Source of the DNA: Lachnospiraceae bacterium
Lineage (GTDB): Bacteria; Bacillota; Clostridia; Lachnospirales; Lachnospiraceae
DNA: 64,000 bases
NCBI GenBank assembly: GCA_017470935.1
Contig: JAFUXG010000055.1
Location: 22,992-86,991, forward strand
Direction of reading: 5' to 3'
The position numbers and the translations under genes were made by a program. Each line of letters opens with the position of its first letter. Position 1 is the stretch's first letter. The notes under the pieces are model-generated. The model worked only from the letters and a program-made list of their open reading frames with translations, ran no database searches and was not told the origin of the DNA. Positions 169-43,441 of this stretch are shown here, one piece after another.

Positions 169-197
169 TTGCAATATCAGTTTTGTTATGTTATATT
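169..197 (+). promoter_or_regulatory. Candidate sigma-A promoter of the iron-uptake operon
   Basis: TTGCAA (169-174), 17-nt spacer, then TATATT (192-197) preceded by TGT (extended -10 like). Position relative to the Fur box and the gene start is plausible. Confidence 0.4.
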
Positions 198-260: not shown

Positions 261-2096
261 ATGCGTACATATAAGAAATTTACGATAGCAGCAAAGAGAT
301 TTGATACAGGATATAGGAGAAGAAGCTGGGCCGCCATTTTTTCAATTATTATGGTGCTCACTTACATGATGTCAATATCAGTGTTTACTGTATCAGTGCC
401 CTATGTATATGCGGCAGGCACTGAGTATGAGACATGGGAGGAATATAAGGCTGGTACAGGTGTTACAGGCAGTACATGGAATGTGGTGTGTGATGCTATT
501 GATGCTGTACTTGACCAGGCAGTCTCTGTATATAAGGATGGAGATGCCGAGGGTGCTCTTTCGTGGATGAGCAGTGCTAAGAACAGCTACTGGGGAGCGT
601 CAGGATTTAAGATCGAGATGCAGAAGAAGCTTCCAAGTGCAAGTAAGAAGACGGTTGAGACTAATTTCTCTACGTGTAATCAGGTAATCAAGAATAATGG
701 TTCCATTGATGACCTTAATACAGGAATTGATGAGCTTAAAAGTGCACTGCGCACAGCAGCCAATAAGCTTGATGGAGTTGAGGAGGAGATAGAGATTGCG
801 GCAGAGACTGATACGGCAGCCACGGAGATATTTGCAAGTCAGTACTGCGCCACATGGGAAGAGTATCAGAATGCATCAGGGCTTACCTCATGGACATGGA
901 ATGATGTGGCAGATGCCATGACAGAGGTGTTCAAGGAGGCGAAGGCTAAGTATGAGGCCGGAGATGCCGAGGGGGCATATAATTGTGTAAATGATGGTTA
1001 TTACGGATATTACGAGACCACAGGCTTTGAGCGTAATGCCATGGGTTATATATCAGGTTCAAGAAAATCTGAGGTGGAGCTTCAGTTTTCGGCCTGCAAG
1101 AGTGTGACAAAGGATGATGGCCCTACAGAGGAGTTCAACAAGCAGGTTGATATATTAAGATCGATGATCCGCACAGATGCCAATAAGTTAGATGGCGTGG
1201 ATGAGAATGGTGAGGCGGCAGAGGGAAGCCGCTCCGCAGGAGTTGCTACATTTATTGCATGCTTCACAATTATTCTTCGAGAGGGCTTTGAGGCTATTCT
1301 GGTGGTAGGTGCGATAATCGCATATCTTGTAAAGACAAATGCTGATAAGCCTGAGGAAGAGAAGAAGAGACAGCTTCGTCCTGTGTATGCAGGTTCCATA
1401 ATAGGTATATTATTATCATTCGTGTCAGCATGGGCACTTAATCAGTTAAAGCTTGCCAACAGTGCTTCGCAGGAGATCATAGAAGGCGTGACAGCTCTTA
1501 TCGCAGTGGTTGTTCTTTTCTGGGTATCCAACTGGATGGTTTCAAAGTCGGAATCAGAGGCGTGGGATGCTTATATTAAGAAACAGCTTAAGAAGGGCTC
1601 GGAAAAGGGAAGTACATTTGCTCTTGCATTTACAGCATTTCTTGCAGTATATCGTGAGGGTGCAGAGGTTATATTATTCTATCAGCCGCTCCTTGCGGGA
1701 GACAATATTAATATGGTGTGGACAGGCTTTATAGTAGGTGCGGTATGCCTGGTGTTTGTATATCTTGCAATTCGTCTCCTGTCAGTGAGAATTCCGTTAA
1801 AACCATTCTTCCTGGCAACAAGTATATTGATGTTTATCATGTCTATATCGTTCTTAGGCTCAGGAATCAAGGAGCTTATTGAGGGTGATGTAATTCAAAT
1901 GACTTCGCCGGCGTGGGTTGCATGGATACCTTCTAACTCTGTTATGGAGGTGCTTGGAATATATCCTTGTGTACAGACTGTTGTACCGCAGCTCATACTT
2001 CTTGCCATTACTATTGTGGTGTTTATATTCTGGCTTAAGAGAAATAAGAAGCTTAAGGAGGAGTTAGAGGCGGAAGCGGCAGCAGAGACTGAATAG
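261..2096 (+). CDS. FTR1/EfeU-family high-affinity iron permease with a long duplicated N-terminal extracytoplasmic extension
   Basis: Two REGxE motifs in the membrane half (REGFEA at nt 1278-1295, REGAEV at nt 1653-1670). C-terminal half is multi-TM. N-terminal signal anchor. Gene sits next to a P19 homologue. Confidence 0.85.
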   Translation: MRTYKKFTIAAKRFDTGYRRRSWAAIFSIIMVLTYMMSISVFTVSVPYVYAAGTEYETWEEYKAGTGVTGSTWNVVCDAIDAVLDQAVSVYKDGDAEGALSWMSSAKNSYWGASGFKIEMQKKLPSASKKTVETNFSTCNQVIKNNGSIDDLNTGIDELKSALRTAANKLDGVEEEIEIAAETDTAATEIFASQYCATWEEYQNASGLTSWTWNDVADAMTEVFKEAKAKYEAGDAEGAYNCVNDGYYGYYETTGFERNAMGYISGSRKSEVELQFSACKSVTKDDGPTEEFNKQVDILRSMIRTDANKLDGVDENGEAAEGSRSAGVATFIACFTIILREGFEAILVVGAIIAYLVKTNADKPEEEKKRQLRPVYAGSIIGILLSFVSAWALNQLKLANSASQEIIEGVTALIAVVVLFWVSNWMVSKSESEAWDAYIKKQLKKGSEKGSTFALAFTAFLAVYREGAEVILFYQPLLAGDNINMVWTGFIVGAVCLVFVYLAIRLLSVRIPLKPFFLATSILMFIMSISFLGSGIKELIEGDVIQMTSPAWVAWIPSNSVMEVLGIYPCVQTVVPQLILLAITIVVFIFWLKRNKKLKEELEAEAAAETE

Positions 2097-2236
2097 TATG
2101 TATGATACGGGAGCTGTTACATTGTATATCACTATTTAGTAACAATCCCTTTTCATAAATAAATGATTGCATGGTCCTTCGCAGGGTTTATGCATGATAC
2201 AACATTATTTTACATTATATTAAGGAGGAATATGTA

Positions 2237-2890
2237 ATGAAAAAGAAATTTCTTGCATTAGCACTTGTATCTGCAATGACAATGGCTTTAGTAGCGTGTG
2301 GTTCAGATACAGCAGCAACAAGCGAGTCTGCTGATTCTAATGATGCAGCTGCATCAGAAGAGGTTGTAGCAGATGCTGACACAGAGGATGCAGCAACAGA
2401 TGGTGAGGCAGGCTTTACCGAGATTCCTATCTGGGAGGATGCGGAGGTTGGTTTCCTTAACCTTTCAGCAGTTTATTTCCAGCCTGTTCCTATGCAGAAT
2501 GAGACACAGAACATCTCGGCTGAGGACTTCGATCTTCACCTTGAGGCTGATATCGCTGCATTGGAGAATAATCTTGGCTATGGTGTTGGCGACTGGGTAC
2601 CTTATCTTACAGTTGATTATGATGTAATCGGTTCTGACGGAAATTCAGCAGCTTCAGGTACATTCATGACAATGGCAGCTTCTGATGGTCCTCATTATGG
2701 TGCTAACATTAAGCTTCCTAACGCTGATACATACAGTGTTAAGATCACAATCCACAGCCCTGGTGAGAATGGTTACTTAATCCACTCTGATTCAGAGACA
2801 GGTCCGGGTGGATTGTTAGAGGATTACTTCGGTGATGGCCCTCTTACATATACATTTGAGGGATGGGATTATACACCACAGGAGTGGTAA
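2237..2890 (+). CDS. P19/Tpd-family extracytoplasmic iron(copper)-binding lipoprotein
   Basis: Lipobox LVACGS. The motifs HLEADIAAL ... PYLTVDY ... DGPHYGANIKLP closely follow the Campylobacter P19 family signature. Strong SD AAGGAGG. Confidence 0.85.
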   Translation: MKKKFLALALVSAMTMALVACGSDTAATSESADSNDAAASEEVVADADTEDAATDGEAGFTEIPIWEDAEVGFLNLSAVYFQPVPMQNETQNISAEDFDLHLEADIAALENNLGYGVGDWVPYLTVDYDVIGSDGNSAASGTFMTMAASDGPHYGANIKLPNADTYSVKITIHSPGENGYLIHSDSETGPGGLLEDYFGDGPLTYTFEGWDYTPQEW

Positions 2891-3050
2891 GAGATACCGG
2901 TATAATACGGTCATATGGTCAACTTTTCTATATGTGATATAGGATAATTGACGTTACAATTATGCATTAAGCTACACTGCGGTGCGCCCTTATAGGCGTA
3001 CCGCATTAGTGCGTTAAAAAAGAAGGTTATAAACAGGAGGTGTCAGTGCG

Positions 3051-4304
3051 ATGCTCTCGTACTTGATCAAAACAACAATAAGCTTGCTTATGGCAGTAAT
3101 ATTGCTTGGAATAACGGCTGCATACACTAAGCTGGCTGCAAAAGCTTATGCTAAGAAAATTGTCATAACGGGAACGGTCTTAGGTTTGATTGCTTCCATA
3201 CTCATGTCTGTTGCAAAAAATGCAACAAGCAAGATAGATACAAGTGCGTGGAATCTGGGTATATTTACGGTTGCATTGATAGCATATGCACTGTTACTCA
3301 TTTTTTCTGTTAAAGCAGTGAGCAGTAGGCTAGGCAAAGCTGCAGATGTTATTTTTTGGTGTATGACATCAGTTATTGCTGCTGCTTCACTATTTTATAC
3401 ACTGCCTGATGTATGGGCATATCCATATCAGATGGTTTCAGCAGGACAGAGTATGATCTCAACAGATTTTCTCTATAAAATGATTGGTTTTTTATTTGGC
3501 TGGATTTTAATGATAGTTGTATTTTTTGCGTCGTATAAATGTGTGCTTCGTCTAAGTGAAAAAGGAGCGCTCATATTATTAAAGCTGTCATATCTTATCA
3601 ATGCATTGAGGCAGGCATCGGTTATTCTTTCCATCATACTGGCGAAGAGAATAATTAAGTCAAACCATACCTTATTTACGATTGCGAAATATACATCTAA
3701 TTACAGTAACGGATTTATATATTTGTCCATATTATTGATATTTGTTGTGACGGTTATTTTATGGGTAAGAAGTATGAATGTGAATGAACCATATTCCAAC
3801 CCTGCGCAGCACAGAAAGATCAAAGCAAAGTGGAGGAGCATAAGGCGATGGGCGGCAACGGCTGTCATAGCATTTATCCTATGCATTGCTAATATGACTG
3901 TTATTAATGCCTATGATAATAAGGTAGTGGAGCTTTCTCCTGTGGAGGATGCAAGAGTTGATAACGGTAATGTATATGTTACCTTTGAACAGGTGGCGGA
4001 CGGACATCTTCACCGCTTTGCATATAATACGGAAGGTGGAGTGGAGATAAGATTCATTGTGATCAAAAAGCCTAACTCTTCATCGTATGGTATCGGTCTT
4101 GACGCATGTGATATATGCGGTGAAACGGGTTATTATGAGAAGGATGGCCAGGTGGTATGTAAGCTTTGTGATGTGGTCATGAATATAAGTACCATCGGAT
4201 TCAAGGGAGGCTGTAATCCTATAGTTATTCCGTATGAAATTGAGAACGGAGAGATTATTGTGCCAATTGAGGGGTTGGTAGAATATGAGAGTGAATTCAG
4301 ATAA
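3051..4304 (+). CDS. Polytopic membrane protein with C-terminal DUF2318-type Cys-rich domain (FTR1/P19-associated)
   Basis: About 8 hydrophobic helices followed by a soluble domain with CDICGETGYYEKDGQVVCKLCD. Same position as the DUF2318 gene in ftr1-p19 loci. Confidence 0.7.
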   Translation: MLSYLIKTTISLLMAVILLGITAAYTKLAAKAYAKKIVITGTVLGLIASILMSVAKNATSKIDTSAWNLGIFTVALIAYALLLIFSVKAVSSRLGKAADVIFWCMTSVIAAASLFYTLPDVWAYPYQMVSAGQSMISTDFLYKMIGFLFGWILMIVVFFASYKCVLRLSEKGALILLKLSYLINALRQASVILSIILAKRIIKSNHTLFTIAKYTSNYSNGFIYLSILLIFVVTVILWVRSMNVNEPYSNPAQHRKIKAKWRSIRRWAATAVIAFILCIANMTVINAYDNKVVELSPVEDARVDNGNVYVTFEQVADGHLHRFAYNTEGGVEIRFIVIKKPNSSSYGIGLDACDICGETGYYEKDGQVVCKLCDVVMNISTIGFKGGCNPIVIPYEIENGEIIVPIEGLVEYESEFR

Positions 4305-4337
4305 AAAGTGGTTTCAGAAAAATAGAGGTGACTTGAT

Positions 4338-5627
4338 ATGTTTTTGAGGATGATATTAAGAGCATTCCTAAGGCAGTGGAAGAAGATGGCTATGATAGCC
4401 TTTACCATAGCGCTCGGCTCGTCGTTAGCAACTGCGATGCTGTGCGTGATGATGGATGTTGGAGATAAGGTCAATCAGGAGCTTAAGACCTATGGAGCCA
4501 ATATCAAGGTGGTGCCGAAGGATGCTTCGATTATAAATGAACTATACGACACTGACGGCGAGAATATGTCGGGAGCTTATCTTAGAGAGGATGAGCTAGG
4601 AAAGATCAAGACTATATTCTGGGCGTTTAACATTGTGGATTACGCCCCATTTATAAGCACAAATGCTTCATTAAATGGCGGTGATGAGGTGACGGTCACA
4701 GGAACATGGTTTAATCACCATATGGAGCTTCCAACAGGTGAGACATTGGATGCGGGAGTTGTATCAATGAGAAGCTGGTGGGAGATTATAGCCGGCGACT
4801 GGATTGATGAACAAAATGGTGATGACAGGGATGTTGCCATGGTGGGCAAAGCTTTAGCCGAAGCTAATGGAATTAAGGTGGGAGATACAATTGACCTTAA
4901 GGGAAGCTCAGGAGAAAAAAGTCTTCTTGTATCAGCCATATTTGATGCGGGGGGTGACGAGGACGACCAGGTGTATGTATATCTTGATACAGCACAGGTG
5001 CTGGCTGCTCTTGACGGAAAGGTGGACAGCATTGAGGTAAGCGCACTGACCACACCTGATAATGAGCTGGCTGAGAAGGCAGCTGCAGATCCTTCCTCAT
5101 TGTCAATAGCCCAAAAGGAAACATGGCTCTGTACTGCATATGTCAGTGCAATCTGCTATCAGATACAGGAGGTCATAACCGATTCTGTTGCCTCTGCAGT
5201 CAGACAGGTGGCAGATTCAGAGGGAGAGATTCTTAATAAGACACAGCTTCTTATGATGCTTATCACAGTGCTAAGTCTTGTGGGAGCCGCCCTTGGTATA
5301 TGTAATCTGGTTACGGCATCTGTTATGGAGAGAGCGCAGGAGATAGGACTTATGAAAGCAATAGGCGCACAGAATCCTTCCATTACCGGACTGGTGCTTA
5401 CAGAGATATTGCTTACAGCCATAATTGGCGGTATAGCCGGATTCTTTGCAGGAATAGGATTTGCGCAGATAATCGGCCATAGTGTATTTGCATCTGCCAT
5501 TTCCGTGAGACCTATGGTGATTCCTATTGTTGCTGTGCTTGTATTCATAGTGACATTGATAGGATGTATTCCTGCCATTAAGATGCTTCTTGGTCTCCGC
5601 CCCACAGAAGTTCTTCACGGGAGGTGA
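4338..5627 (+). CDS. ABC transporter permease, FtsX/MacB type
   Basis: N-terminal TM, large extracytoplasmic domain and a C-terminal FtsX-like 3-TM bundle (ERAQEIGLMKAIGA motif). Confidence 0.8.
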   Translation: MFLRMILRAFLRQWKKMAMIAFTIALGSSLATAMLCVMMDVGDKVNQELKTYGANIKVVPKDASIINELYDTDGENMSGAYLREDELGKIKTIFWAFNIVDYAPFISTNASLNGGDEVTVTGTWFNHHMELPTGETLDAGVVSMRSWWEIIAGDWIDEQNGDDRDVAMVGKALAEANGIKVGDTIDLKGSSGEKSLLVSAIFDAGGDEDDQVYVYLDTAQVLAALDGKVDSIEVSALTTPDNELAEKAAADPSSLSIAQKETWLCTAYVSAICYQIQEVITDSVASAVRQVADSEGEILNKTQLLMMLITVLSLVGAALGICNLVTASVMERAQEIGLMKAIGAQNPSITGLVLTEILLTAIIGGIAGFFAGIGFAQIIGHSVFASAISVRPMVIPIVAVLVFIVTLIGCIPAIKMLLGLRPTEVLHGR

Positions 5628-5633
5628 TCATTT

Positions 5634-6824
5634 ATGAAAAAAAGAAAAATGTATATGCGTATGATTACCGCATCACTGCTTAGAAGAAGGTCGAGAATGA
5701 TAGTTGCCCTGCTTGCCATCGCAATTGGAGCAACAATACTATCAGGGCTTGTAACAATATACTATGATGTGCCGAGGCAGATGGGTGCACAGTTTCGAAG
5801 CTATGGTGCCAACATGCTTTTTACGGCGGTAAATGATACATTCAGTCAGGAGGATGTTGATAATGCAGTAGCAGTGATACCTGAGTCACAGCGGGTCGGA
5901 GTTGCACCATACAGATATGAAACGGTGAGGATGAATGACAGGCCTGTACTGGCGGCAGCAACCGATATGGAAGGTGCTAAATCGGCATCTCCATTCTGGA
6001 GAGTTAATGGAGACTGGCCTTCAGCGGATGGGCAGTTAATGATCGGAAAGTCGGTGGCATCCCTTTATAAGCTTAATCCGGGGGATAAGATTGAGGTGAC
6101 ATATACCCCGGTAATTGAGACGGAGAATTCTTCTTCAGATGAAGAAGCTTTGGAAGAGAATGCAGATGAAGAATTTATATTAGATAATTACATAGACTTT
6201 GAGGTTGTGGGAATTCTTGACACAGGTGGTAACGAAGAGGAATATATATATATGACACTTAATGACATGGAAAAGCTTACAGGAAAAGCCAATTACTACA
6301 ATGTGTGTGAGCTTTCCGTATCTGCAACGGCTGATGAGCTGTCAGTCTATGCAGATAAGATTAGTGAAGGTGTTGAAGGGATTAACGCACGGCTGGTGAA
6401 GCGTGTAACCCAATCCGAGACAACAGTGCTTTCAAAGCTGCAGTCTCTTGTGCTTTTGGTAACAGTCGTAGTTCTGGCACTTACAATGATATGTGTTGCC
6501 ACCACTATGACTGCAGTTGTGGCAGAGAGGAGAAAAGAGATTGGCCTTCGAAAAGCGCTTGGTGCCTCAGATAAGAGTATAATAGGTGAATTTATGGGTG
6601 AAGGACTTTTGCTGGGGTTTGCAGGCGGATTCTTAGGTGCTTTTCTTGGATTTCTGTTCGCACAGGGAGTCAGTGTAAGCGTGTTCAACAGCTCTATATC
6701 ATTTAGGCCGCTGCTGCTTCCGGTTACAATAATTGTTTCTGTTGTGGTGACGGGAGTTGCGTGCCTGATACCGATACGAAGTGCAACGGATGTGGATCCG
6801 GCACTTGTACTGAAAGGAGAATAA
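5634..6824 (+). CDS. ABC transporter permease, FtsX/MacB type (second subunit)
   Basis: Same topology as the preceding gene. ERRKEIGLRKALGA motif. Confidence 0.8.
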   Translation: MKKRKMYMRMITASLLRRRSRMIVALLAIAIGATILSGLVTIYYDVPRQMGAQFRSYGANMLFTAVNDTFSQEDVDNAVAVIPESQRVGVAPYRYETVRMNDRPVLAAATDMEGAKSASPFWRVNGDWPSADGQLMIGKSVASLYKLNPGDKIEVTYTPVIETENSSSDEEALEENADEEFILDNYIDFEVVGILDTGGNEEEYIYMTLNDMEKLTGKANYYNVCELSVSATADELSVYADKISEGVEGINARLVKRVTQSETTVLSKLQSLVLLVTVVVLALTMICVATTMTAVVAERRKEIGLRKALGASDKSIIGEFMGEGLLLGFAGGFLGAFLGFLFAQGVSVSVFNSSISFRPLLLPVTIIVSVVVTGVACLIPIRSATDVDPALVLKGE

Positions 6825-6828
6825 GGAA

Positions 6829-7521
6829 ATGAGCCTTCTGGAATTAAAAAATGTATCAAAAATATATGGAAATCTTCATGCGCTTGACAATGTAAGTCTA
6901 ACAGTGGAAAAGGGTGAGTGGGTTGCGATAATGGGACCTTCCGGCTCCGGCAAAAGTACTATGATGAATATTATCGGGTGCATGGATAAGGCAAGTGAGG
7001 GAGAGGTCTTGTTGGATGGAGTTGATATATCCAAGGAATCTTCCAAGAGCCTTACAAATATAAGACGTGATAAGATAGGCCTTATATTCCAGCAGTTCCA
7101 TCTTGTAAGCTATCTTACGGCACTTGAAAATGTTATGCTGGCACAGTATTATCATAGTATACCTGACGAAAAGGAAGCGTTAGAGGCCCTTGAAAAGGTT
7201 GGCCTTGCAGACCGTGCTAAGCATTTTCCGAGCCAGTTATCCGGCGGTGAGCAGCAGAGGGTATGTGTTGCAAGAGCGCTTATCAATTATCCTGAGATAA
7301 TACTTGCAGATGAACCCACGGGTAATCTTGATGAGGCGAATGAAGAGATCGTAGTTGAACTTTTCAGGAAGCTTCATGAGGATGGAACCACACTTATTGT
7401 TGTTACCCATGATCCTGAGGTGGCAGAGGTTGCCCAAAGAACGCTTGTGCTGCGTAATGGAAAGCTTGATCATGAGACAGTTAATAAGAATTTTACAGGA
7501 CATATTAAGTATAATTTGTAA
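6829..7521 (+). CDS. ABC transporter ATP-binding protein (MacB/LolD-like)
   Basis: Walker [10 protein letters not shown], signature LSGGEQQR, Walker B ILADEPT. Confidence 0.9.
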   Translation: MSLLELKNVSKIYGNLHALDNVSLTVEKGEWVAIMGPSGSGKSTMMNIIGCMDKASEGEVLLDGVDISKESSKSLTNIRRDKIGLIFQQFHLVSYLTALENVMLAQYYHSIPDEKEALEALEKVGLADRAKHFPSQLSGGEQQRVCVARALINYPEIILADEPTGNLDEANEEIVVELFRKLHEDGTTLIVVTHDPEVAEVAQRTLVLRNGKLDHETVNKNFTGHIKYNL

Positions 7522-14595: not shown

Positions 14596-14679
14596 TATGT
14601 TGTGAAAAATTATTATTTAGAAAAATTATCATTTATTATAGCTGTTTTGGTGTTGAAATAACAGATGTTATGTGATATA

Positions 14680-14695
14680 GTTAGTTGATTCTAAC
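14680..14695. promoter_or_regulatory. GTTAG-N6-CTAAC palindrome (candidate operator), site A
   Basis: GTTAGTTGATTCTAAC overlaps or follows a TTGAAA-17nt-TATAGT promoter-like element (14654-14682) upstream of the DUF4418/Cys-rich/HMA genes. Confidence 0.55.
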
Positions 14696-14761
14696 TAATG
14701 AGAAGATATAGGTATGAATGTATCAGGGGTAAAGGATACACATATGAAAAGGAGAAAAAGG

Positions 14762-15178
14762 ATGAAGAATATTAAGGTTTTGGATATTGTTTTGCTGGTG
14801 CTTAGCGCAGTGCTTTGTGTGGGCGTTAAGGCTGTATTTCATGCATGTGAGGTGATGGAGGATAAGATTATGTCATGCCACTGGGCAGAGCAGGCTGTGT
14901 TTGCAATGGGAATTGTACTTGTCGTACAGGCATTGGGGCTTATTATACTTTCAAGATATAATGTAAGAAGAGGATTAAGCTATGCAATGATACCTACAGC
15001 TATGGTTACTGCATTTATTCCCAAGGTAATGATCAACCTGTGTATGATGAATGATATGCGATGTCATACCACCATGCGTCCGGCAGTTATTATATTGTCG
15101 ATTATAATTGCTGTATGCGCGCTGGTCAATGCTGTGACAGCAGAGGGCAATAAAAGTGAATTAAACAGTAATATATAG
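14762..15178 (+). CDS. Small polytopic membrane protein (DUF4418-like)
   Basis: Start at 14762 follows SD AAGGAG; 14744 is also possible. Four hydrophobic helices with conserved-looking Cys (HACE, SCHW). Confidence 0.55.
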   Translation: MKNIKVLDIVLLVLSAVLCVGVKAVFHACEVMEDKIMSCHWAEQAVFAMGIVLVVQALGLIILSRYNVRRGLSYAMIPTAMVTAFIPKVMINLCMMNDMRCHTTMRPAVIILSIIIAVCALVNAVTAEGNKSELNSNI

Positions 15179-15189
15179 AGGTAATGATT

Positions 15190-15372
15190 ATGAGCAGTGT
15201 ATTGGTTAATATTATTGCAACTTTGATATTAGTAGCTGTTGTGGGTTCAGCGTGCTACTATATATATAAGGAGAAAAAAAAGGGAACAGCATGCATAGGC
15301 TGTCCTATGGCAGGTGATTGCGCTAAGGCAAAAGCCGGAGGGTGCGCTGCTGTAGATACCGACAAGCGATAG
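15190..15372 (+). CDS. FeoB-associated Cys-rich small membrane protein-like
   Basis: One TM, then a basic stretch and CIGCPMAGDC ... GGC. Confidence 0.55.
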   Translation: MSSVLVNIIATLILVAVVGSACYYIYKEKKKGTACIGCPMAGDCAKAKAGGCAAVDTDKR

Positions 15373-15384
15373 AGGTGATTATAT

Positions 15385-15753
15385 ATGAATATTCAGGATT
15401 TTATCATAGTTGTAATACTGGTAATAATATTGGTGCCTGCCATAAGAAGCACTATAACCCACATGAAGGGTGAGGGCGAGTGCTGTGGCGGACCCAAGGA
15501 AAAGCCTGTTAAGAAAAAGCTTCCGGGTAAGCCCATACATAAGCTTATAGTTCACATAGAGGGAATGCATTGCGATAACTGCAAGAACAGGGTAGAGAAG
15601 CATCTTGATGAGCTTGACGGGGTTATCGCCAAGGTGAAGCTTTCAAGAAAGCTTGCTGAGGTATCACTTTATGAAGAGGTGGATGAGGCGCTTATTAAGG
15701 ATACCATTGAGAAGCTGGATTTTGAGGTTACGGGTATAGAAACGGTGGGATAG
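15385..15753 (+). CDS. Membrane-anchored heavy-metal-associated (HMA) domain protein
   Basis: N-terminal TM plus GECCGG, then an HMA fold with GMHCDNC (MxCxxC). SD GAGGTGA. Confidence 0.75.
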   Translation: MNIQDFIIVVILVIILVPAIRSTITHMKGEGECCGGPKEKPVKKKLPGKPIHKLIVHIEGMHCDNCKNRVEKHLDELDGVIAKVKLSRKLAEVSLYEEVDEALIKDTIEKLDFEVTGIETVG

Positions 15754-20808: not shown

Positions 20809-21198
20809 ATGCAGAAAGGGGAAATAATATTGAGCAGAAGGCAACATGATAGGTGGTATATCTCGGATATAGATGAATCGCATGACACCTGGTTAAATGG
20901 CGACAAAAAAGATAAACCCCAGGAATCATGGGGAATGCAATTATGGGAGATTGCACAGAAGATGGAAGCGGCAATTCTTATAATCCGTAAAAAGGATGAG
21001 GATGATAAATCCAAAAAGTCTGCAGCTAACATTCTCCGCGAACTTCTACAGGAATGTATATGGGATGAGAATTTGAGTGATCTGACCTCTATCTACAAAG
21101 ACAAGGAAGCGGACAATGTTTTGGGATATGATACCGTTGCTATTTCCACCTTTGTTGGACAAATGGTGGCGGAATATCCAAAGCCCTCAAATCGTTGA
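20809..21198 (+). CDS. Hypothetical protein, small partner ORF of the giant fusion gene
   Basis: 129 codons starting 13 nt after the giant ORF stop. An alternative TTG start at 20830 is preceded by SD AAAGGGG. No recognisable motif. Confidence 0.55.
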   Translation: MQKGEIILSRRQHDRWYISDIDESHDTWLNGDKKDKPQESWGMQLWEIAQKMEAAILIIRKKDEDDKSKKSAANILRELLQECIWDENLSDLTSIYKDKEADNVLGYDTVAISTFVGQMVAEYPKPSNR

Positions 21199-21275
21199 TA
21201 ATTTATTGATATTTCACAGTCTTTATTGAAATGGTATAGACATTATTAAAAAGTTGTGATATATTTTATCTGTTG

Positions 21276-21291
21276 GTTAGTAACATATAAC
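21276..21291. promoter_or_regulatory. GTTAG-N6-(A)TAAC palindrome, degenerate site E
   Basis: GTTAGTAACATATAAC has one mismatch in the right arm. Upstream of the P-type ATPase operon. Confidence 0.35.
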
Positions 21292-24066: not shown

Positions 24067-24122
24067 TAATATGCCATGGATAGGCACATTGTCCTTTATT
24101 CATGGCATTTATTTTAAAGCTG

Positions 24123-24138
24123 TGTTAGTTATCTCTAA
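24123..24138. promoter_or_regulatory. GTTAG-N6-CTAAC palindrome, site D
   Basis: GTTAGTTATCTCTAAC, about 100 nt upstream of the first ABC ATPase gene. Confidence 0.5.
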
Positions 24139-24241
24139 CTTAAAAGTATACAAAAAATAGTAATTGTTCAGGACTGGTGATGTGAAAGTCTGGTTCTGGA
24201 TGGTTACAGATAAATCATAAATGAAAGGAATATGTAGGGAA

Positions 24242-24943
24242 ATGTTTGTTGAGGTTTCGGAGGTAAAGAAAAGCTATGGAGAGGGCGGAAGCTATATAGA
24301 GGTGTTGAAGGGTGTTTCCGTCCAGGTGGAAAAAGGAGAAATGTGTGTAATCCAGGGGACTTCAGGATCGGGAAAATCCACACTGCTTAACTGTATCGGA
24401 GGACTTGATGAGGCTGATTCCGGCTCCATATGTATTGCAGGGCAGGAGATAGTTGGACTTAAGGGAGAGAAGCTTTCGGATTACCGCAGGGACAATCTGG
24501 GCTTTATATTTCAGTTCTATAATCTTGTTCCGAATCTGACAGTAAGGGAAAATATCCAGGTGTGTGAGTATCTGACGGGTGATCCCCTGTCTATGGATGA
24601 GCTTCTTGATGTGCTTGGACTTAAGGAGCATGCAGACAAATTCCCATCGCAGCTTTCAGGCGGACAGCAGCAGCGGTGTGCCATAGCAAGAGCTCTTATC
24701 AAAAATCCAAAGCTTCTGCTCTGTGATGAGCCCACCGGAGCATTGGATTCCAAGACATCAAGGGATATTCTTGTTCTTCTTGAAAGAATAAATACTGCTT
24801 ATGGCACTACCATGATGATAGTAACACACAATAATTCTATCAAGAATATGGTGGATCATGTGATATATCTGAAGGATGGGGAGATATATAAGAATTATTA
24901 TAATGAAGTCAAGGTACCGGCCGTAGAGCTTGAAGATTTGTAG
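24242..24943 (+). CDS. ABC transporter ATP-binding protein (pair 1)
   Basis: Walker A GTSGSGKST, signature LSGGQQQR, Walker B LLCDEPT. Start at MFVEV is preferred over 24221. Confidence 0.9.
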   Translation: MFVEVSEVKKSYGEGGSYIEVLKGVSVQVEKGEMCVIQGTSGSGKSTLLNCIGGLDEADSGSICIAGQEIVGLKGEKLSDYRRDNLGFIFQFYNLVPNLTVRENIQVCEYLTGDPLSMDELLDVLGLKEHADKFPSQLSGGQQQRCAIARALIKNPKLLLCDEPTGALDSKTSRDILVLLERINTAYGTTMMIVTHNNSIKNMVDHVIYLKDGEIYKNYYNEVKVPAVELEDL

Positions 24944-24981
24944 TAATTAGAATGGCTGCAATACGCGAAAGGATTAATGAT

Positions 24982-27498
24982 ATGCAAAAGGTTTTGATAA
25001 AACGTTCAATAAGAGACTTAAAGGAAAACCTGGCCAGATATATAGCGCTAGGTGCTCTTATCATTTTTTCAATATATATGGTGCTTAGTCTTGTGGGAGC
25101 GGCAACAGCCACCATCGATCAGACTGCAGAATATGACGCAGAGCTTAACTGTGAGGATGGGGAGTTTTCTGTATTTGTACCTCTTACTGATTCTGAAATC
25201 AACAGGATAACGAAAAAGGGTGTGGATGTGGAGAAGATGTTCTTCTTAGACTATCTCATGGAGGATGAGAGCGTCTTAAGAGTGTTCAAAAACCGTAAGG
25301 ATATTAACAAGATTACCCTTAAGGAAGGACGAATTGCTTCAAATGAATCTGAGATAGTGGTAGAACGCCGTTATGCCGAGGTTCATGATATTAATATTGG
25401 GGATACTGTGACACTTGGAGACTTCAACAATACAGACAGTAATGGAAGCGATATTGATGAAGCTGTGGATGATAACAGCTCCGATAATGATAGTGATGTA
25501 AACAGTGATATTATTGACAGCACTGATGATAACAGGGAAATAAATGATAATAGTGGAAATGGGAAAATTAAATATACGGTGGTGGGAATTGGTACCGTCT
25601 CAGACTACAATTCACCACTTAAAAATCTGTCCGATACAGCAGTTGACAGTTCAAACTTCGGATTATTGTTCGTTACGGATGATGCATATGAGAAGCTTAA
25701 AAGTTCCAAGACTGCCATGAAGTCAGAGGAGTATTATTACTCATATAAGCTTAATGATGCCATGACTCATGATGAACTGAAGGATATATTAAAGGATAAT
25801 TCCTTTAATGCCAATTCGGTGGATGATGCCTATTTCAGAGAATATTATGAAAGACTTTCCGGTGGAAGTGCTCTTGCGGGGGTTATGCTTTCTATGTTTC
25901 AGGAGAGCAGCATATTTGCTGACAGCACTGCTAATCTTATATCTCTTTTGAAGGCAGAGGACAATGTGAGGATCGATGCTGCGGCAGATGATGTTGAGAT
26001 CAATAAAACATCAGGAATCTTTGTGGGAATACTTTTGATAATTCTCTTTTCCTATGTTATTTCCGTGTTTGTGGTCCACACTATAGATCAGGAGAGTGCT
26101 GTCATAGGCGCCCTTTATTCCATGGGTGTGAAGCGAAAGGACCTTATGGCGCATTACATAGTGCTGCCTGTAATAGTAACATTTATTTCAGGTGTTATCG
26201 GACTTATCCTTGCGGCTTCAAAACTTGGTATTGAGGTACAGATGCAGGATAATTACAATTATTTTTCCATGCCCAATATGCATCCGGAGGTGACACCATT
26301 TATGGTGGTTTATGCTATCGTGATGCCGCCGGTCATATCAATTATCGTCAATGCTCTTGTGATCAGAAGCAGGCTTAACAGGACGCCGCTGTCACTTCTT
26401 AAGAATGAACAGAAAGTGTCAAAGTCAAAGGATATCAAGCTTAAGGAGATGGAGTTCATTAAGCTTTTCAAGATAAGACAGCTGCTTCGAGAGAGAAGGA
26501 CAGGACTTACGGTGGTGTTCGGACTTTTTATGAGTCTTCTTGTGGCGATGTTGGCGGTAAATGTATATGTGTACTGCGACAAGGTAAACAAGAGAACTAT
26601 TGCGGATACACATTTTGAATATATGTATACCTATAAATATCCTAGCGAGAAGGTGCCGGAGGGCGGCTATGAGGCGGTTGCCGAAAGTATGAAGAAGAAA
26701 TTTTCCCAGTACAATTTTGATGTTACTATACTTGGAATACATGAAGATAATCCCTTCTTTGATATAGACAAGCTCCCGAAGAGTAAAAATGAAGTTGTGG
26801 TGGGAGACACCTTTGCCAGCAAATATCAGCTGAAGGTGGGGGATGAATTCACACTGACCTCCGAGGATGGGGACAGGGCATATGCATTTACGGTATATGA
26901 TATAACCAATTATTCTGCCTCTCTCACTGTGTTTATGGATATTGATGAGTGCAGGGAGCTGTTCGGAGAAATGAATGATTACTACAATGTTGTGTTCTCC
27001 GACCATAAGTTAGAGATTCCGGGAGGACGTCTGTACAGCACCCTCACCAGAAAGGATGTGGAGAAGTCGGCTAAGGTATTTCTTGACCAGATGATGTCCA
27101 TGATAATTACCATGAGTGTGGCTGCGGCTGTCATATTCGTGGTGGTGATGTACCTAATGATGAAAATGATGTTAGACAAGTCATCATTTAATATAGCACT
27201 TGTGAAGATATTCGGCTTCCGTGACAAGGAGGTCAGGAAGATGTATCTGGACGGGAATTTCTATGTCATAGCCTTGGGTGCTCTCATATCCATTCCCATA
27301 TGCAAGGCGATACTTAACTATGTGTATCCCAATTATCTGGTGTCAAATGTGGCTACGGGATTTGAGCAGTCATTTCCACCATACATTTATGTGATGATAT
27401 ACGCAGTTATACTTTTGTTATATTTTGTTATCAATCATTCGCTGGTATCCCGGATAAGCAAGATGGTGCCGGCAGAGGTTTTGAAAAATAGAGAGTGA
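24982..27498 (+). CDS. Large ABC transporter permease with two FtsX-type modules (pair 1)
   Basis: About 10 TM in two FtsX bundles separated by large extracytoplasmic domains. D/S/N-rich low-complexity insert at about nt 25430-25565. Start at the ATG after SD GAAAGGA. Confidence 0.8.
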   Translation: MQKVLIKRSIRDLKENLARYIALGALIIFSIYMVLSLVGAATATIDQTAEYDAELNCEDGEFSVFVPLTDSEINRITKKGVDVEKMFFLDYLMEDESVLRVFKNRKDINKITLKEGRIASNESEIVVERRYAEVHDINIGDTVTLGDFNNTDSNGSDIDEAVDDNSSDNDSDVNSDIIDSTDDNREINDNSGNGKIKYTVVGIGTVSDYNSPLKNLSDTAVDSSNFGLLFVTDDAYEKLKSSKTAMKSEEYYYSYKLNDAMTHDELKDILKDNSFNANSVDDAYFREYYERLSGGSALAGVMLSMFQESSIFADSTANLISLLKAEDNVRIDAAADDVEINKTSGIFVGILLIILFSYVISVFVVHTIDQESAVIGALYSMGVKRKDLMAHYIVLPVIVTFISGVIGLILAASKLGIEVQMQDNYNYFSMPNMHPEVTPFMVVYAIVMPPVISIIVNALVIRSRLNRTPLSLLKNEQKVSKSKDIKLKEMEFIKLFKIRQLLRERRTGLTVVFGLFMSLLVAMLAVNVYVYCDKVNKRTIADTHFEYMYTYKYPSEKVPEGGYEAVAESMKKKFSQYNFDVTILGIHEDNPFFDIDKLPKSKNEVVVGDTFASKYQLKVGDEFTLTSEDGDRAYAFTVYDITNYSASLTVFMDIDECRELFGEMNDYYNVVFSDHKLEIPGGRLYSTLTRKDVEKSAKVFLDQMMSMIITMSVAAAVIFVVVMYLMMKMMLDKSSFNIALVKIFGFRDKEVRKMYLDGNFYVIALGALISIPICKAILNYVYPNYLVSNVATGFEQSFPPYIYVMIYAVILLLYFVINHSLVSRISKMVPAEVLKNRE

Positions 27499-27508
27499 GG
27501 AGAAAAAC

Positions 27509-28204
27509 ATGTTCATAGACCTTATAAATGCAAAGAAAATATACGGAAAAGGCGAGAGTGAGGTAAGAGCCTTAGACGGTGCCAGCCTTCAGCTGGATGA
27601 AGGTGGTGTGTATGTAATACTTGGACCATCCGGCAGCGGCAAATCCACACTGTTAAACATGCTTGGAGGACTTGACAGTCTTGACGAGGGAGAATTAAGT
27701 ATCGGTGGGGTGAAGCTTTCCGGTGAGAAGAATAAGCTGGTTGAATACAGGCGCAGTGATGTTGGTTTTGTATTTCAGTTCTACAATCTCATTCCCGACC
27801 TTACGGTGAAAGAGAATATTCAGGTGGTGGCTGATATAGCAGAATCGCCCCTTGATATAGATGAAGTGATGGAGGCTGTTGATATTATGAAGTATCAGGA
27901 CCATTTTCCATCAGAGCTTTCGGGAGGACAGCAGCAAAGAGTTAGCATTGCCAGGGCTATTATCAAGAATCCCAAGCTTCTACTGTGTGATGAGCTTACG
28001 GGAGCCCTTGACAGTAAGTCTGCAAAGCAGGTGCTGAAATTCATAGAAAGGGTGAATCAGACCTTTCACACCACCATCATTATCATAACCCACAACGAGG
28101 CAATTGCACACATGGCTGACAGGATCATACGGATCAAGGATGGACAGGTGTCCTCCAATGTGGAAAATACTGAGAAGGTGGCTGCGGCTGAGCTGGAGTT
28201 GTAG
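27509..28204 (+). CDS. ABC transporter ATP-binding protein (pair 2, paralogue of 24242)
   Basis: Walker [10 protein letters not shown], signature LSGGQQQR, Walker B LLCDELT. The sequence aligns with 24242-24943 along its whole length. Confidence 0.9.
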
Positions 28205-28224
28205 GAGGAGAATAGGAAGAAATC

Positions 28225-30690
28225 ATGACTTTGAATAAGCGATATCCGAGGAACATTAAGAAAAATCTATCATTTTATATATGCGTGTGCCTGCTGACGG
28301 TTCTTGTCGTAGTCCTTTATCTGGATTTTGATGCGGGGACACAGAAGTTCGGCAGAGTATTAGACAGATTCTACGATAAGTTTCATGTGGAGGATGCCCA
28401 GTTTACGACTGTGTATGAAATAGATGAGGCTGCTATAGAGGACCTTGAAAAGGAGTATAACATACTTTTGGAGAAGCAGAGGTATGCAGACTTTGAACTT
28501 GAGGATTATACGGTAAGGGTTGTTGATGTTTCTAAAAAGATAAACATGCTAATCCCGAATGACAGTAATGCAGAGACCGGTGAACCTGTTACAGACATAT
28601 CCGGAGGGGAGGTTACTGGCACATCCAGTGGGGAGGTTACAGACATATCCGGTGGGGCGGTTACCGGCGTATCAGATAAGTCTGTTTCTGATATAGCAGA
28701 TAAGCAGGATATCGGTAATGAGGAATCGCCACATATAATAATGTTCAATACCGGTCTTATGGAAGGTAACGATATAAGTGAGAGTGATATCATTGAGCTT
28801 GGTGGCAAAAGCTTCACATTTGCAGGCGGATTTGAAAGGCCGGATTATCTATTTCCAATTAAGGACACTTCAGATACATATGCACTGAAAAATGCATTCG
28901 GTATTGCAGTTGTAAGTGATGAGGATTTTGAGTATCTTTCAAAAGCAAGTGAGGATTCTTTCGAGTATTACAGCATTATATATAACAGTGATAACGAGGC
29001 GGAGGTCAGAAAGGCCATCAATCGTGAGTACACTATGCTTTCATATCTCAATGCAAAGACTAATACCCGTATCAGTACACCTTTGTTGGAGGTGGAGGAG
29101 ACGGCCAATATGATGCATATGGTCATACTGGTGCTTGTGATATTTGTTTCCGTTATTATATCCGTTGTCATCGGACGAAGGATCAGGAATGACAGAAGAC
29201 AGATTGGCGTGCTGATCGCATTAGGATACAGAAAGAGGGAGCTTATAAAGCATTATGCATTTTACGGAATGTATTCAGGTCTTATAGGAACGGTCATCGG
29301 AGTGATCATCTCCTGTCTGTTTTCAAACAGCCTTATTCAATACCTGTTTTTCAAGATTGAACCCATTCCCATAAGCTATCAGGTGAGTCTGCCTAATATA
29401 CTGATTGCGATTATTGTTCCAACGCTTATGTACACATTTGCGGTGTACAGGTCGGCGGCAAAAGTAATGAAAACAGATGTCATAACAATGATATCCGGCA
29501 GGAGCCAGGGGCGGGAAGTGTCTAGACTCCGAATGAAGAGAAGTCATCTGAAAACAAAGACAAAATATAAGCTCAGGCAGATATTTGGAAAGCCGGGAAG
29601 AAGTATCATAGTTATTATCGGAATGGCATTTGGGGGCATGCTCTATGCATTCTGTATCACATGTATAGATTCCATGGATGATTATGTGAAGCATACGGTA
29701 GACCAGATTGGAAGCTTTGAGTATGAATATTTTTTGAAGTCGCCGGAGCTTGGAGAGCCTGAGGGGGGGGATGCCATTTACGGCGCAAGCTTTGAGGTCA
29801 AGGGCAGGGATGACATGATCATGCTGCTTGGAATTGACAGCCCAAGACTTATTAATTTCACTGATAATAACGGTAATGAGCTTCAATATGACGAAGACCA
29901 TTATTACATTACATCCATGGCAAGCTTGGCTTACGGTGCAGGTGTGGGTGATGAGATAAGCTTTGTGGATCCAATTACCCTTGAGGAATACACTGTGAAG
30001 ATTACTGACGTGATCAAAAATGATTCCCAGGCTGCAATCTATTGTTCAAGAGAAAATGCAATAGAGCTGCTTAAGGTCAATGACAATATGTTTTCAGCCG
30101 CCAACGGAATGATTGGGGTTAGGGTTTCCATTTATAATCTGCTTCATCCTGCAGGTGAGGAGGAGCTGCTGCCGTACAACATAATCATGTCTGATAAGGA
30201 GCTTGATATTGACAGTGATGATCTTATAAAGACCATTTCCAAGACCTCCCTTGCGGACCAGATCAACGAGGTCAAGACCAATATGGAAAATCTTATGGGG
30301 ATTATCAATGTGTTTGCCATTCTTATATGCGTTATAGTGGTGTATATGATGGTAAATGTGCTTATGACGGAGGCCTCGTCCTCAGTGTCCATGCTTAAGG
30401 TGTTAGGCTACAGGAATAAGGAAATCAATTCCATGGTGCTTAACGTGTATCATTTCCTGGTGCCGATTGCTATAGTCATAAGCTTTGTGCTTGGATTTTT
30501 CGGAACTAAAGCGGTGTTTACGGCTAATGTATCAGTATATAAGACATATCTGGCAACACTGATCTATCCAATATCTGTGGTGAAGATGACGGCACTTATC
30601 GTTGTAAGCTATGGGGTGTCATTACTGCTTTTGAGAGGCAAAGCAGGTAAGGTGGATCTGGTGGAAAGCCTTAAGGATAACAGAGAGTGA
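28225..30690 (+). CDS. Large ABC transporter permease with two FtsX-type modules (pair 2)
   Basis: Same architecture as 24982-27498. Contains an in-frame tandem repeat. Confidence 0.8.
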   Translation: MTLNKRYPRNIKKNLSFYICVCLLTVLVVVLYLDFDAGTQKFGRVLDRFYDKFHVEDAQFTTVYEIDEAAIEDLEKEYNILLEKQRYADFELEDYTVRVVDVSKKINMLIPNDSNAETGEPVTDISGGEVTGTSSGEVTDISGGAVTGVSDKSVSDIADKQDIGNEESPHIIMFNTGLMEGNDISESDIIELGGKSFTFAGGFERPDYLFPIKDTSDTYALKNAFGIAVVSDEDFEYLSKASEDSFEYYSIIYNSDNEAEVRKAINREYTMLSYLNAKTNTRISTPLLEVEETANMMHMVILVLVIFVSVIISVVIGRRIRNDRRQIGVLIALGYRKRELIKHYAFYGMYSGLIGTVIGVIISCLFSNSLIQYLFFKIEPIPISYQVSLPNILIAIIVPTLMYTFAVYRSAAKVMKTDVITMISGRSQGREVSRLRMKRSHLKTKTKYKLRQIFGKPGRSIIVIIGMAFGGMLYAFCITCIDSMDDYVKHTVDQIGSFEYEYFLKSPELGEPEGGDAIYGASFEVKGRDDMIMLLGIDSPRLINFTDNNGNELQYDEDHYYITSMASLAYGAGVGDEISFVDPITLEEYTVKITDVIKNDSQAAIYCSRENAIELLKVNDNMFSAANGMIGVRVSIYNLLHPAGEEELLPYNIIMSDKELDIDSDDLIKTISKTSLADQINEVKTNMENLMGIINVFAILICVIVVYMMVNVLMTEASSSVSMLKVLGYRNKEINSMVLNVYHFLVPIAIVISFVLGFFGTKAVFTANVSVYKTYLATLIYPISVVKMTALIVVSYGVSLLLLRGKAGKVDLVESLKDNRE
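28588..28683 (+). repeat. In-frame 48-bp tandem repeat (VTDISGGEVTGTSSGE / VTDISGGAVTGVSDKS) inside permease 2
   Basis: GTTACAGACATATCCGG recurs at 28588 and 28636. There is an 8-aa sub-periodicity, GGxVTxxS. Confidence 0.8.
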
Positions 30691-30704
30691 GGAGGAGCAG
30701 GACA

Positions 30705-31559
30705 ATGAGTTCAAGGAAAAACCAAAGGTTTCGGGATTATGAGAATGTACCAAGTACTTCTCATAATATAGATATTACCGGCGTGCCGGAAACAATGATT
30801 CAGACCTTGTATGCCAGAGCAAAGGAGTCTAAGAAGAAAAAGCATTACATATATGACGAGCAGGCAATCAGTATAGTGGAGAAGATGGATTATGATTTCT
30901 CCAAGGCTGACAAGGATATGAAAATGAGTTCCGGCGTAATAGCCAGAACCATTATGTTAGATAAAATGGTGGGTGATTATGTTAGCAGACATCCTGAAGC
31001 TACGGTGATCAATATTGCCTGCGGAATGGATACCAGAGTATACCGGGTTGATAACGGAAGATTAAGGTGGTTCAATATTGACCTGCCGGAAACCATAGGT
31101 GTCAGGAAAAGATTTCTTGATGAGAATGACAGGATTAAAATGATGGCATACTCGGCAATGGATGAAGCCTGGGCATATAATATAGGCGATGTGACAGGTG
31201 ACGTTCTTGTGGTTATAGAGGGACTTTCCATGTACCTTTCAGAAAAAGATGTTAAGAGAATTCTCAATATTATAGCGGAACACTATAAGGAAAATGATGT
31301 GACTGTATATATGGAATACATGTCGCCCTTTGTAGTTAAGAGGATTAAAGAAAAGTCAATTGCCCAGAGTGGTGCTAAGTTCACATGGGGAGCAGCGTCA
31401 GGAAAAGAGATAGCTGCACTGTGTCCGGTTTTTAAGTGCACAGAAGATCACAGCCTTGTTGAGGGCATGGAAGTGATGTATCCCATATACAAGATCATAG
31501 GGAAGATTCCAGCAGTCAGGAATATATCCAATAAAATTGTGGTACTTAAAAAGAAATAA
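30705..31559 (+). CDS. Class I SAM-dependent methyltransferase (LCM/TcmP-like O-methyltransferase family)
   Basis: VINIACGMDTR motif I and NIDLPETIGVRK. Paralogue of 47308-48135. SD GAGGAGGAG. Confidence 0.7.
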   Translation: MSSRKNQRFRDYENVPSTSHNIDITGVPETMIQTLYARAKESKKKKHYIYDEQAISIVEKMDYDFSKADKDMKMSSGVIARTIMLDKMVGDYVSRHPEATVINIACGMDTRVYRVDNGRLRWFNIDLPETIGVRKRFLDENDRIKMMAYSAMDEAWAYNIGDVTGDVLVVIEGLSMYLSEKDVKRILNIIAEHYKENDVTVYMEYMSPFVVKRIKEKSIAQSGAKFTWGAASGKEIAALCPVFKCTEDHSLVEGMEVMYPIYKIIGKIPAVRNISNKIVVLKKK

Positions 31560-31617
31560 ATATACAATGGTCAAATTTAACTACGGTCAAAAATTGGATT
31601 TTAACAGGAGGACGATT

Positions 31618-32307: not shown

Positions 32308-32315
32308 CAAAATAT

Positions 32316-33287: not shown

Positions 33288-33315
33288 TTGACAATACCAA
33301 ATATATGTATATAAT
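33288..33315 (+). promoter_or_regulatory. Sigma-A promoter (TTGACA, 16 nt, TATAAT)
   Basis: Consensus hexamers read directly. Immediately followed by operator-like site B1. Confidence 0.6.
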
Positions 33316-33331
33316 GTTAGTTAAGACTAAC
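33316..33331. promoter_or_regulatory. GTTAG-N6-CTAAC palindrome, site B1
   Basis: GTTAGTTAAGACTAAC abuts the -10 hexamer. Confidence 0.6.
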
Positions 33332-33392
33332 CAATATAATATTCCATCCATTAGAATTCATATAATTAATGGGTGGTTTATTTTGAACATAT

Positions 33393-33408
33393 GGTTAGTT
33401 AAGACTAA
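33393..33408. promoter_or_regulatory. GTTAG-N6-CTAAC palindrome, site B2
   Basis: The identical 16-mer GTTAGTTAAGACTAAC lies 77 bp downstream of B1. Confidence 0.6.
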
Positions 33409-43425: not shown

Positions 43426-43441
43426 GTTAGTCATTACTAAC
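43426..43441. promoter_or_regulatory. GTTAG-N6-CTAAC palindrome, site C
   Basis: GTTAGTCATTACTAAC lies between the candidate promoter and the EamA gene start. Confidence 0.55.

Follow-up and report, generated by a model that had tools for sequence, protein, structure and literature searches.

The palindrome GTTAG-N6-CTAAC as the probable operator of a small DtxR/MntR-family metalloregulator in a Lachnospiraceae bacterium

The 64-kb stretch of Lachnospiraceae DNA analyzed here (C63:22992-86991 of its genome assembly, referred to as the window) carries several copies of the palindrome GTTAG-N6-CTAAC, among them copies in front of an FTR1 iron permease operon and a DUF3793-flavodoxin operon. This palindrome is probably the operator of a small two-domain metalloregulator of the DtxR/MntR family, encoded in this genome at C67:127157-127519; that the protein binds the palindrome, that it represses its targets and which metal it senses are inferred. 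With metal, most likely Fe(II), one dimer would sit on each 16-bp palindrome with one winged-helix domain per TTAG/CTAA half, and where the operator lies at the -10 (198, 14680 and 33316; operators are named by their first position in the window) or at roughly +5 to +20 (43426), the bound dimer would block RNA polymerase. As iron falls the repressor would leave, and the FTR1-P19 genes, the iron-sparing DUF3793-flavodoxin pair, feoB and lineage-specific transporter operons would be expressed. The type of switch is familiar, and our searches turned up no account of it in this bacterial group.

Copy Number and Confinement to Intergenic DNA

Six perfect copies of the palindrome are present in the window (Table 1), where the chance expectation is 0.04 and none of 100 dinucleotide-preserving shuffles reached six. 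The original prediction, made from the window sequence alone, had expected well under one copy per 64 kb by chance, which the shuffling bears out. All five perfect sites that it listed exist, though those placed at 24123 and 33393 were off by one and the copy at 198-213, before the FTR1 operon, was overlooked. When one mismatch was allowed the sole extra site in the window was 21276-21291, which is present as predicted.

The genome assembly spans 3.06 Mb in 75 contigs, with 40% G+C and 78% completeness. It holds 18 perfect copies, and all 18 are intergenic, that is, in the 13.5% of the genome left uncovered by a crude map of open reading frames (ORFs). The claim that the copies avoid coding DNA extends from the window to the genome-wide scan. 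The reversed pattern, used as a control, has two copies in the genome, which at a 13.5% intergenic fraction gives a chance expectation of about 0.3 perfect intergenic copies. Copies with one mismatch number 25 genome-wide, and only 3 of them are intergenic, which is the background proportion. Since the one-mismatch copies occur only at background, the ten specified bases are under strong selection as a block. The outer G/C of the GTTAG arms is invariant, position 6 of the half-site is A or T in 33 of the 36 half-sites and never G, and the variant GTTCG-N6-CGAAC has no copy in the whole genome.

Operator Architecture

The 19-bp IdeR/DtxR iron box consists of four CCTAA repeats and binds two offset dimers, while a single IdeR dimer contacts TTAGG-N4-CCTAA, which can be written as TTAG-N6-CTAA (PMC10317159). 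The enterobacterial MntR box AACATAGCnnnnGCTATGTT likewise reads ATAG-N6-CTAT (PMC1698941). Every copy of our palindrome has an xTAG-N6-CTAx core and so the one-dimer spacing of the DtxR family. The original prediction had set the element apart from DtxR sites by its spacing of 6 rather than 1, but the reference there was the middle of the box for two dimers, when it should have been the half-site of one dimer. The classical 19-bp box TTAGGTTAGSCTAACCTAA has no match in the genome at two or fewer mismatches, and its matches at three to four mismatches are mostly the 16-bp sites themselves. Because no four-repeat box is found, each site would take one dimer. The element resembles an IdeR/DtxR or MntR operator on sequence grounds, with all testable features of the family present except the 19-bp two-dimer box.

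The TTAG-N6-CTAA core is the same as in the actinobacterial IdeR/DtxR sites, for example the Saccharopolyspora erythraea IdeR half site TTAGG-N4-CCTAA (PMC10317159), and in both systems operators are found at the -10 or transcription start of iron-uptake genes. Unlike in those sites, the base after TTAG is never G here, the outer G/C is invariant and the host is a low-GC member of the Clostridia. With MntR of Escherichia coli and Bacillus subtilis the element shares the xTAG-N6-CTAx core and the single dimer, but its half site is GTTAG as opposed to the CATAG of AACATAGCnnnnGCTATGTT.

IdeR boxes at repressed promoters extend over the -10 or the start site (PMC10317159). In the window, the distance from the end of the -10 to the start of the operator is 0 nt at 198, -2 nt at 14680, 0 nt at 33316 and +11 nt at 43426. 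At these distances the four operators would span either the start site or the first 20 bases of the transcript, as is typical of repressor sites. The earlier description of the copies as abutting or following the -10 holds for these four. It fails at 24124 and 33394, each of which comes after a terminator-like hairpin and has no recognisable sigma-70-like promoter directly in front of it.

A Single DtxR-Family Protein as Candidate Regulator

A PF01325 profile search of the assembly returned one credible DtxR-family gene, C67:127157-127519. Since the only such gene sits on contig C67, the statement that no cognate regulator is encoded in the window stands. The product is 121 aa long and comprises PF01325 and PF02742, the DNA-binding and the dimerisation and metal domains. 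It shares both with IdeR/DtxR but lacks their SH3-like third domain, and in its two-domain form it is like MntR (~120-155 aa). Relatives at 72-93% identity come from Lachnospiraceae including Roseburia, Acetatifactor, Lachnospira, Faecalimonas, Oliverpabstia and Lachnotalea, the closest being from metagenome-assembled genomes of the ruminant gut.

To link the protein to the palindrome, 150 Lachnospiraceae genera were scored for a DtxR homologue, motif copies and copies of the reversed control. The 139 genera with a homologue have a mean of 5.63 motif copies versus 1.83 control copies, and the 11 genera without one have 1.00 versus 3.00. In a Clostridia-wide sample of 199 genomes, the means are 4.00 versus 1.95 in the 106 genomes with a strong homologue and 0.59 versus 1.84 in the 63 without any homologue. 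The co-occurrence is seen across many families of Clostridia. That the motif is rarer than the control where the regulator is missing means that the true chance baseline is lower than the control implies, perhaps due to avoidance of TAG-containing words.

The palindrome is also linked to the regulator gene. In 19 of 30 genera the gene has a perfect copy no more than about 250 nt away, and in 34 of 72 named species it has one within 400 nt, at 117-337 nt upstream. Co-occurrence and linkage to the site make C67:127157-127519 a strong candidate for the reader of the palindrome, and the regulon need no longer be called unassigned, as it was at first. The proposed correlation with DtxR, MntR or Fur paralogues comes out in favour of the DtxR homologue, as the motif excess follows this protein and not the Fur-like one.

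Conservation of Sites in Front of Orthologous Operons

Conservation is clearest for DUF3793, where a perfect copy was found within 700 nt upstream of 23 of 29 orthologues from other genera whose proteins are only 33-60% identical. There are often two copies, 46-153 nt apart, and most of the remaining loci have one-mismatch copies. The closest FTR1 orthologue (72% identity, genome G050) has two perfect copies at the start of the gene, and in another genome a copy precedes a DUF4418-FTR1 operon. For FeoB, a copy precedes 9 of 28 genes, concentrated in a subfamily of ~730 aa that is often encoded beside the regulator.

Several observations weigh against the DtxR-family reading of the palindrome. 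DUF4418 homologues in relatives have a copy in only 1 of 5 cases, none of five EamA orthologues has one nearby, and orthologous ABC/FtsX permease operons have none wherever their upstream DNA was covered. Seven genera carry a DtxR homologue and have no perfect copy, and one genus without a detected homologue (G045, represented by a genome that is only 86% complete) has six. The sampled genomes are related and not independent, so that p-values for the co-occurrence are indicative only and overstate the case. In this genome the copy next to the regulator gene, at C67:126977, falls on the promoter of the divergently oriented Fur-like gene and not on that of the regulator, and autoregulation is therefore unsupported here. 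With the assembly at 78% completeness another regulator could be missing from it. Lastly, the protein is MntR-like in its recognition helix and in having Asp/Asn where DtxR has Met10, which leaves room for Mn(II) or mixed sensing.

The predicted regulon is made up of a conserved core (DUF3793-flavodoxin, one type of feo and FTR1) and a lineage-specific periphery (the ABC, EamA and DUF4418 operons). Conservation before orthologous operons, whose absence would have refuted the original prediction by its own terms, is found for DUF3793, the closest FTR1 and the FeoB subfamily, is rare for DUF4418 and is not seen for EamA or ABC/FtsX. Because only about 0.3 intergenic copies are expected by chance, the peripheral sites in this genome are probably functional too, and recently acquired.

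Which Metal Is Sensed

The solved structures closest to the regulator are those of E. coli and B. subtilis MntR (2h09 and 1on1). Its best NCBIfam models are also MntR, with scores of 78.6 against a cut-off of 153 bits and 61.6 against 138 bits, both below the equivalog threshold. Of the six positions that bind metal in B. subtilis MntR (Asp8, Glu11, His77, Glu99, Glu102 and His103), five are retained, but the Glu99 position is Cys in 16 of 16 aligned orthologues, as is Cys102 in DtxR, and here as there this Cys is followed by Glu and His. At the position of DtxR Met10 the protein has Asp and most orthologues have Asn, and the recognition helix reads KSSVSIA as opposed to SGPTVSQ in IdeR/DtxR. 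Judged by these residues the ligand set is an IdeR/MntR hybrid. Swapping the sulfur-ligand residues Met10 and Cys102 between IdeR and MntR has been found to switch or broaden the metal response (PMC10317159).

It is conceivable that the same protein and operator sense Mn(II), as in classical MntR, and that the regulon is a manganese response. The structural relatives, the model hits and the retained ligand positions with Asp/Asn at Met10 fit this, as does a review according to which low-GC Gram-positive bacteria sense iron through Fur and use DtxR-family proteins for manganese only (PMC10317159). We nonetheless think it unlikely given the far sub-threshold scores, the Cys in place of Glu99 in every aligned orthologue, the iron-uptake and iron-sparing genes of the regulon and the lack of a manganese importer in the assembly. 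An MntR equivalog as such is rejected on its scores and ligand set, and no mntH- or mntABC-type uptake genes were found either: neither an NRAMP (PF01566) nor a ZnuA-type (PF01297) importer was detected in the assembly at its 78% completeness. Both families are also absent from the 25 families listed, out of 59, for genes flanking the sites in four other genomes. In these four genomes 52 of 65 motif copies are intergenic, and the genes beside them include FeoA/FeoB, DUF3793, HMA, Shr-like haem-binding and ABC proteins.

The targets FTR1-P19, feoB and flavodoxin suggest iron over manganese. We lean with modest confidence towards Fe(II) as the sensed metal, with Mn(II) or mixed sensing taking up most of what remains. 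The earlier suggestion of metal control is supported in that the palindrome behaves as the shared cis-element of a metal-type regulon.

Our literature searches found no characterization of DtxR-family iron control in Lachnospiraceae or Clostridia. These results suggest that a small MntR-like protein with a DtxR-like Cys governs much of the response to iron starvation in Lachnospiraceae and many other Clostridia, which are major gut and rumen bacteria. Such a reading departs from the Fur-for-iron view of low-GC Gram-positives (PMC10317159). If true, a simple 16-bp rule would serve to predict the iron regulons of uncultured gut bacteria across thousands of genomes, and DUF3793, DUF2325 and DUF4418 would be placed in iron physiology.

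The Fur-Family Neighbour and Other Possible Readings

The palindrome could instead be read by another protein, either the Cys-rich Fur-like protein, whose gene is divergent from that of the DtxR-family regulator, or a factor of the Crp/Fnr type. The Fur-like gene (C67:126464-126992 region) is the only PF01475 match in the assembly and is atypical, as Pfam matches only the DNA-binding half of the protein, which has six Cys and no His-rich site. Its promoter, TTGACT-17-TAAACT, is the one overlapped by the GTTAG operator at C67:126977, and Crp sites, too, typically have a 5-N6-5 layout. However, the Fur-like protein was found in only 57 of 151 genera, and genera without it have a strong excess of the motif over the control (19 vs 1 in G120, 16 vs 3 in G084 and 12 vs 0 in G110), which rules it out as the reader. 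The half-site also fits DtxR-family sites and not the 7-1-7 Fur box, and the motif excess drops below the control exactly where no DtxR homologue is found. Altogether we consider a different protein reader quite improbable. In relatives the Fur-like gene is often clustered with the DUF6110, P-type ATPase and DtxR genes, and together with its operator this suggests a cascade from the DtxR-family protein to the Fur-like one.

As for Fur boxes, a perfect one, TGATAATTATTATCA, is located at 133-147 inside a 23-bp palindrome (region 128-151). It is the only perfect one in the genome, the scan yielding only AT-rich noise below it. The GTTAG palindrome is distinct from it, as originally noted, since its sequence differs from the 7-1-7 form TGATAAT-N-ATTATCA. 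The box sits ~20 nt upstream of the -35 of the GTTAG-bearing FTR1 promoter, which may be under dual control. The proposed output, repression in iron-replete cells, is the same as in the Fur regulons of low-GC Gram-positives such as that of Clostridioides difficile, which includes feo and flavodoxin (PMC6311696). Unlike in C. difficile, the protein family and the operator here are different ones, there is a single perfect Fur box, and the sole Fur-family gene is atypical, Cys-rich and preceded by a GTTAG operator.

Another thought is that the palindrome acts as RNA, with a 5-bp hairpin GUUAG-loop-CUAAC in 5′ leaders affecting mRNA stability, attenuation or translation. Copies 24124 and 33394 do lie inside leaders, past a terminator-like hairpin, and copies in relatives are often 4-12 nt before the Shine-Dalgarno (SD) sequence. 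But transcripts from the promoters at 198, 33316 and 14680 would lack the 5′ arm, and the arms are invariant across hundreds of copies with no compensatory variation, which fits protein-DNA readout. Copy number, moreover, follows a DNA-binding protein, and a search of the whole window against Rfam gave no covariance-model match to a known structured RNA family at the gathering threshold. We regard an RNA element as very improbable. A dispersed repeat or mobile element without a regulatory role, which the original prediction had itself raised against the palindrome and which the identical 16-mers at 33316 and 33394 and the duplicated DUF3793 locus might bring to mind, has next to no likelihood and a mobile repeat is ruled out, since the 18 copies have flanks without extended similarity (median identity 34%, maximum 55% in a pair of recent paralogues), all copies are intergenic at promoters or leaders, and copies are kept before DUF3793 orthologues across genera.

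A Terminator-Like Hairpin at a Fixed Distance from the Operator

The DUF3793 leader runs from a consensus promoter through O1 (operator 33316), a 12-nt spacer and an 11-bp hairpin followed by TTTATTTT to O2 (operator 33394). The same order with unrelated stems is found at the paralogue on contig C50 (C50:8810-8883) and in at least 12 other genera (loci L088-L116). In this genome the DUF3793 gene is duplicated along with the whole promoter-O1-terminator-O2 leader (window 33288-34101 and C50:8750-9527); the flanks have diverged to ~55% identity with the layout kept, and the proteins are 95% identical. Across loci the distance from O1 to the stem ranges from 1 to at least 48 nt, and that from the stem to O2 is steady at 15-19 nt. 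A census of all 159 unique perfect copies in the DNA fetched showed a strict terminator-like hairpin ending 15-20 nt upstream of 16 of them, with 0-4 in the other 3-nt bins between 0 and 80 nt.

An extra promoter between the hairpin and O2 is improbable as a rule, though one may exist in this window. Only 5 of 21 cases show a -35-like hexamer in register, the would-be -10, TAAC with the two bases that follow, carries T as its sixth base in 5 of 21, and several relatives have just 4-12 nt from the operator to the start of the SD, leaving no room for it. Since an intervening promoter is not generally supported, transcripts must cross the hairpin. No sequence between O1 and the terminator is conserved between genera as a conserved small RNA would be.

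Our preferred reading of this layout, though we hold it to be doubtful, is that the terminator is conditioned by the repressor, an operator 15-19 nt past the stem making a leaky terminator tight in the presence of metal. A metal-loaded dimer on this operator would hold up RNA polymerase at the U-tract; without metal the polymerase would read through into the downstream genes. For DUF3793-flavodoxin, the O2 terminator and O1 at the promoter would then form a double lock. The hairpin-operator layout might instead reflect a separate short RNA, or the T-tract might matter through DNA shape. Natural roadblock factors include LacI, PurR, GalR, CcpA and CodY (PMC10310618), and operators 24124 and 33394 are comparable in lying downstream of the likely start, where a bound repressor could act only on elongating polymerase. 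Unlike those roadblocks, the operator here is fixed 15-19 nt past an intrinsic terminator, and the review mentions no intrinsic terminators (PMC10310618). If true, the fixed spacing may point to an undescribed coupling of repressor and termination.

Operons, Further Copies and Neighbouring Elements

The sites and operons of the window and the copies elsewhere in the genome are collected in Table 1.

Table 1. Copies of the palindrome with associated promoters, hairpins and operons. Plain positions are those of the window and C-numbers denote contigs; operon contents in the window are from Pfam.
Feature	Position	Strand	Remarks
FTR1-P19 promoter TTGCAA-17-TATATT	169-197		ends at operator 198
Operator GTTAGACGCAACTAAC	198-213	no strand	directly 3′ of the FTR1-P19 promoter -10, gap 0 nt
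FTR1 iron permease, P19-type Fe2+ transport protein, FtrD-like protein, two FtsX/MacB-type permeases, ABC ATPase	261-7521	+	
Operator	14680-14695	no strand	2-nt overlap with -10 of TTGAAA-17-TATAGT (14653-14681)
DUF4418, FeoB-associated Cys-rich membrane protein, membrane-tethered HMA protein	14714-15753	+	
One-mismatch copy GTTAGTAACATATAAC (doubtful)	21276-21291		10 nt past promoter TAGACA-17-TATATT, before DUF6110 and P-type ATPase
Terminator-like hairpin TGCCATGG...CCATGGCA, then TTTATTTTA	24072-24116	+	leader, -18.2 kcal/mol
Operator	24124-24139	no strand	16-17 nt past hairpin stem end, before ABC/FtsX operon
Two pairs of ABC ATPase/FtsX permease (~820-850 aa), LCM-family methyltransferase, DUF6796, PEMT-like protein	24221-33242	+	
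Consensus promoter TTGACA-16-TATAAT	33288-33315	+	12/12 matches
Operator O1 GTTAGTTAAGACTAAC	33316-33331	no strand	starts at first base after -10
Intrinsic-terminator-like hairpin CCATCCATTAG...TAATGGGTGG, then TTTATTTT	33344-33384	+	11-bp stem, -14.1 kcal/mol
Operator O2, same sequence as O1	33394-33409	no strand	17 nt past hairpin stem end
DUF3793, flavodoxin	33532-34700	+	
Operator	43426-43441	no strand	11 nt past -10 of TTGACT-17-TACACT (43386-43414); 13 nt 5′ of EamA start codon
EamA-family transporter, ATC_hydrolase-like protein	43455-45148	+	ATC_hydrolase-like gene 44507-45148
Perfect copy before feoB	C44		
Perfect copies at paralogous DUF3793 locus	C50		protein 95% identical
Perfect copy before ATC_hydrolase-like gene	C6		
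Copies before aldo-keto reductase, ABC exporter and Trep_Strep membrane protein	C73		
Copy before MCP-domain gene	C10		
Copy before glycosyltransferase	C54		
Copy between Fur-family and DtxR-family genes	C67:126977		

The P-type ATPase operon, which had been counted as a member of the regulon, does not hold up. Its membership rests on the copy at 21276, a one-mismatch site. Such sites occur only at the background rate, and this one is not kept in relatives: perfect copies within 1.2 kb are found at only 6 of 29 orthologous DUF6110/P-type ATPase loci, mostly distant. What these loci have in common instead is a Fur-box-like TGATAA...TTATCA element. In many genera a TTGATAA-N5-TTnTCAA-like element recurs ahead of the DUF6110/P-type ATPase operons, and in the window it lies at ~21190-21215. 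In some genera GTTAGnCTTGAATAAC adjoins this element, and the control region is distinct from the 16-bp palindrome.

Among the 58 operator-flanking genes in four other genomes, the LCM methyltransferase family, represented in the ABC operon of the window at 30687-31559, occurs three times, and enolase and DUF2325 occur twice each. Four operator-bearing promoters share the arrangement TTGACTTT-N9/10-(G)AGTAGTA with the operator 11 nt past the -10 (window 43386-43414, C6:5666-5710, C73:20173-20215 and C73:34159-34200), and two of the four drive ATC_hydrolase-like genes (on C6, and at 44507-45148 in the window). On contig C67, an 8-bp GC-rich stem, GAGGTTAG...CTAACCTC, encloses the copy at 123837 and has a T-run on the minus strand (C67:123790-123860), so that this copy may simply be a plain terminator. 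It is adjoined by ATATGAACAAATATTCATAT, which we take to be an ArsR/CzrA-type palindrome.

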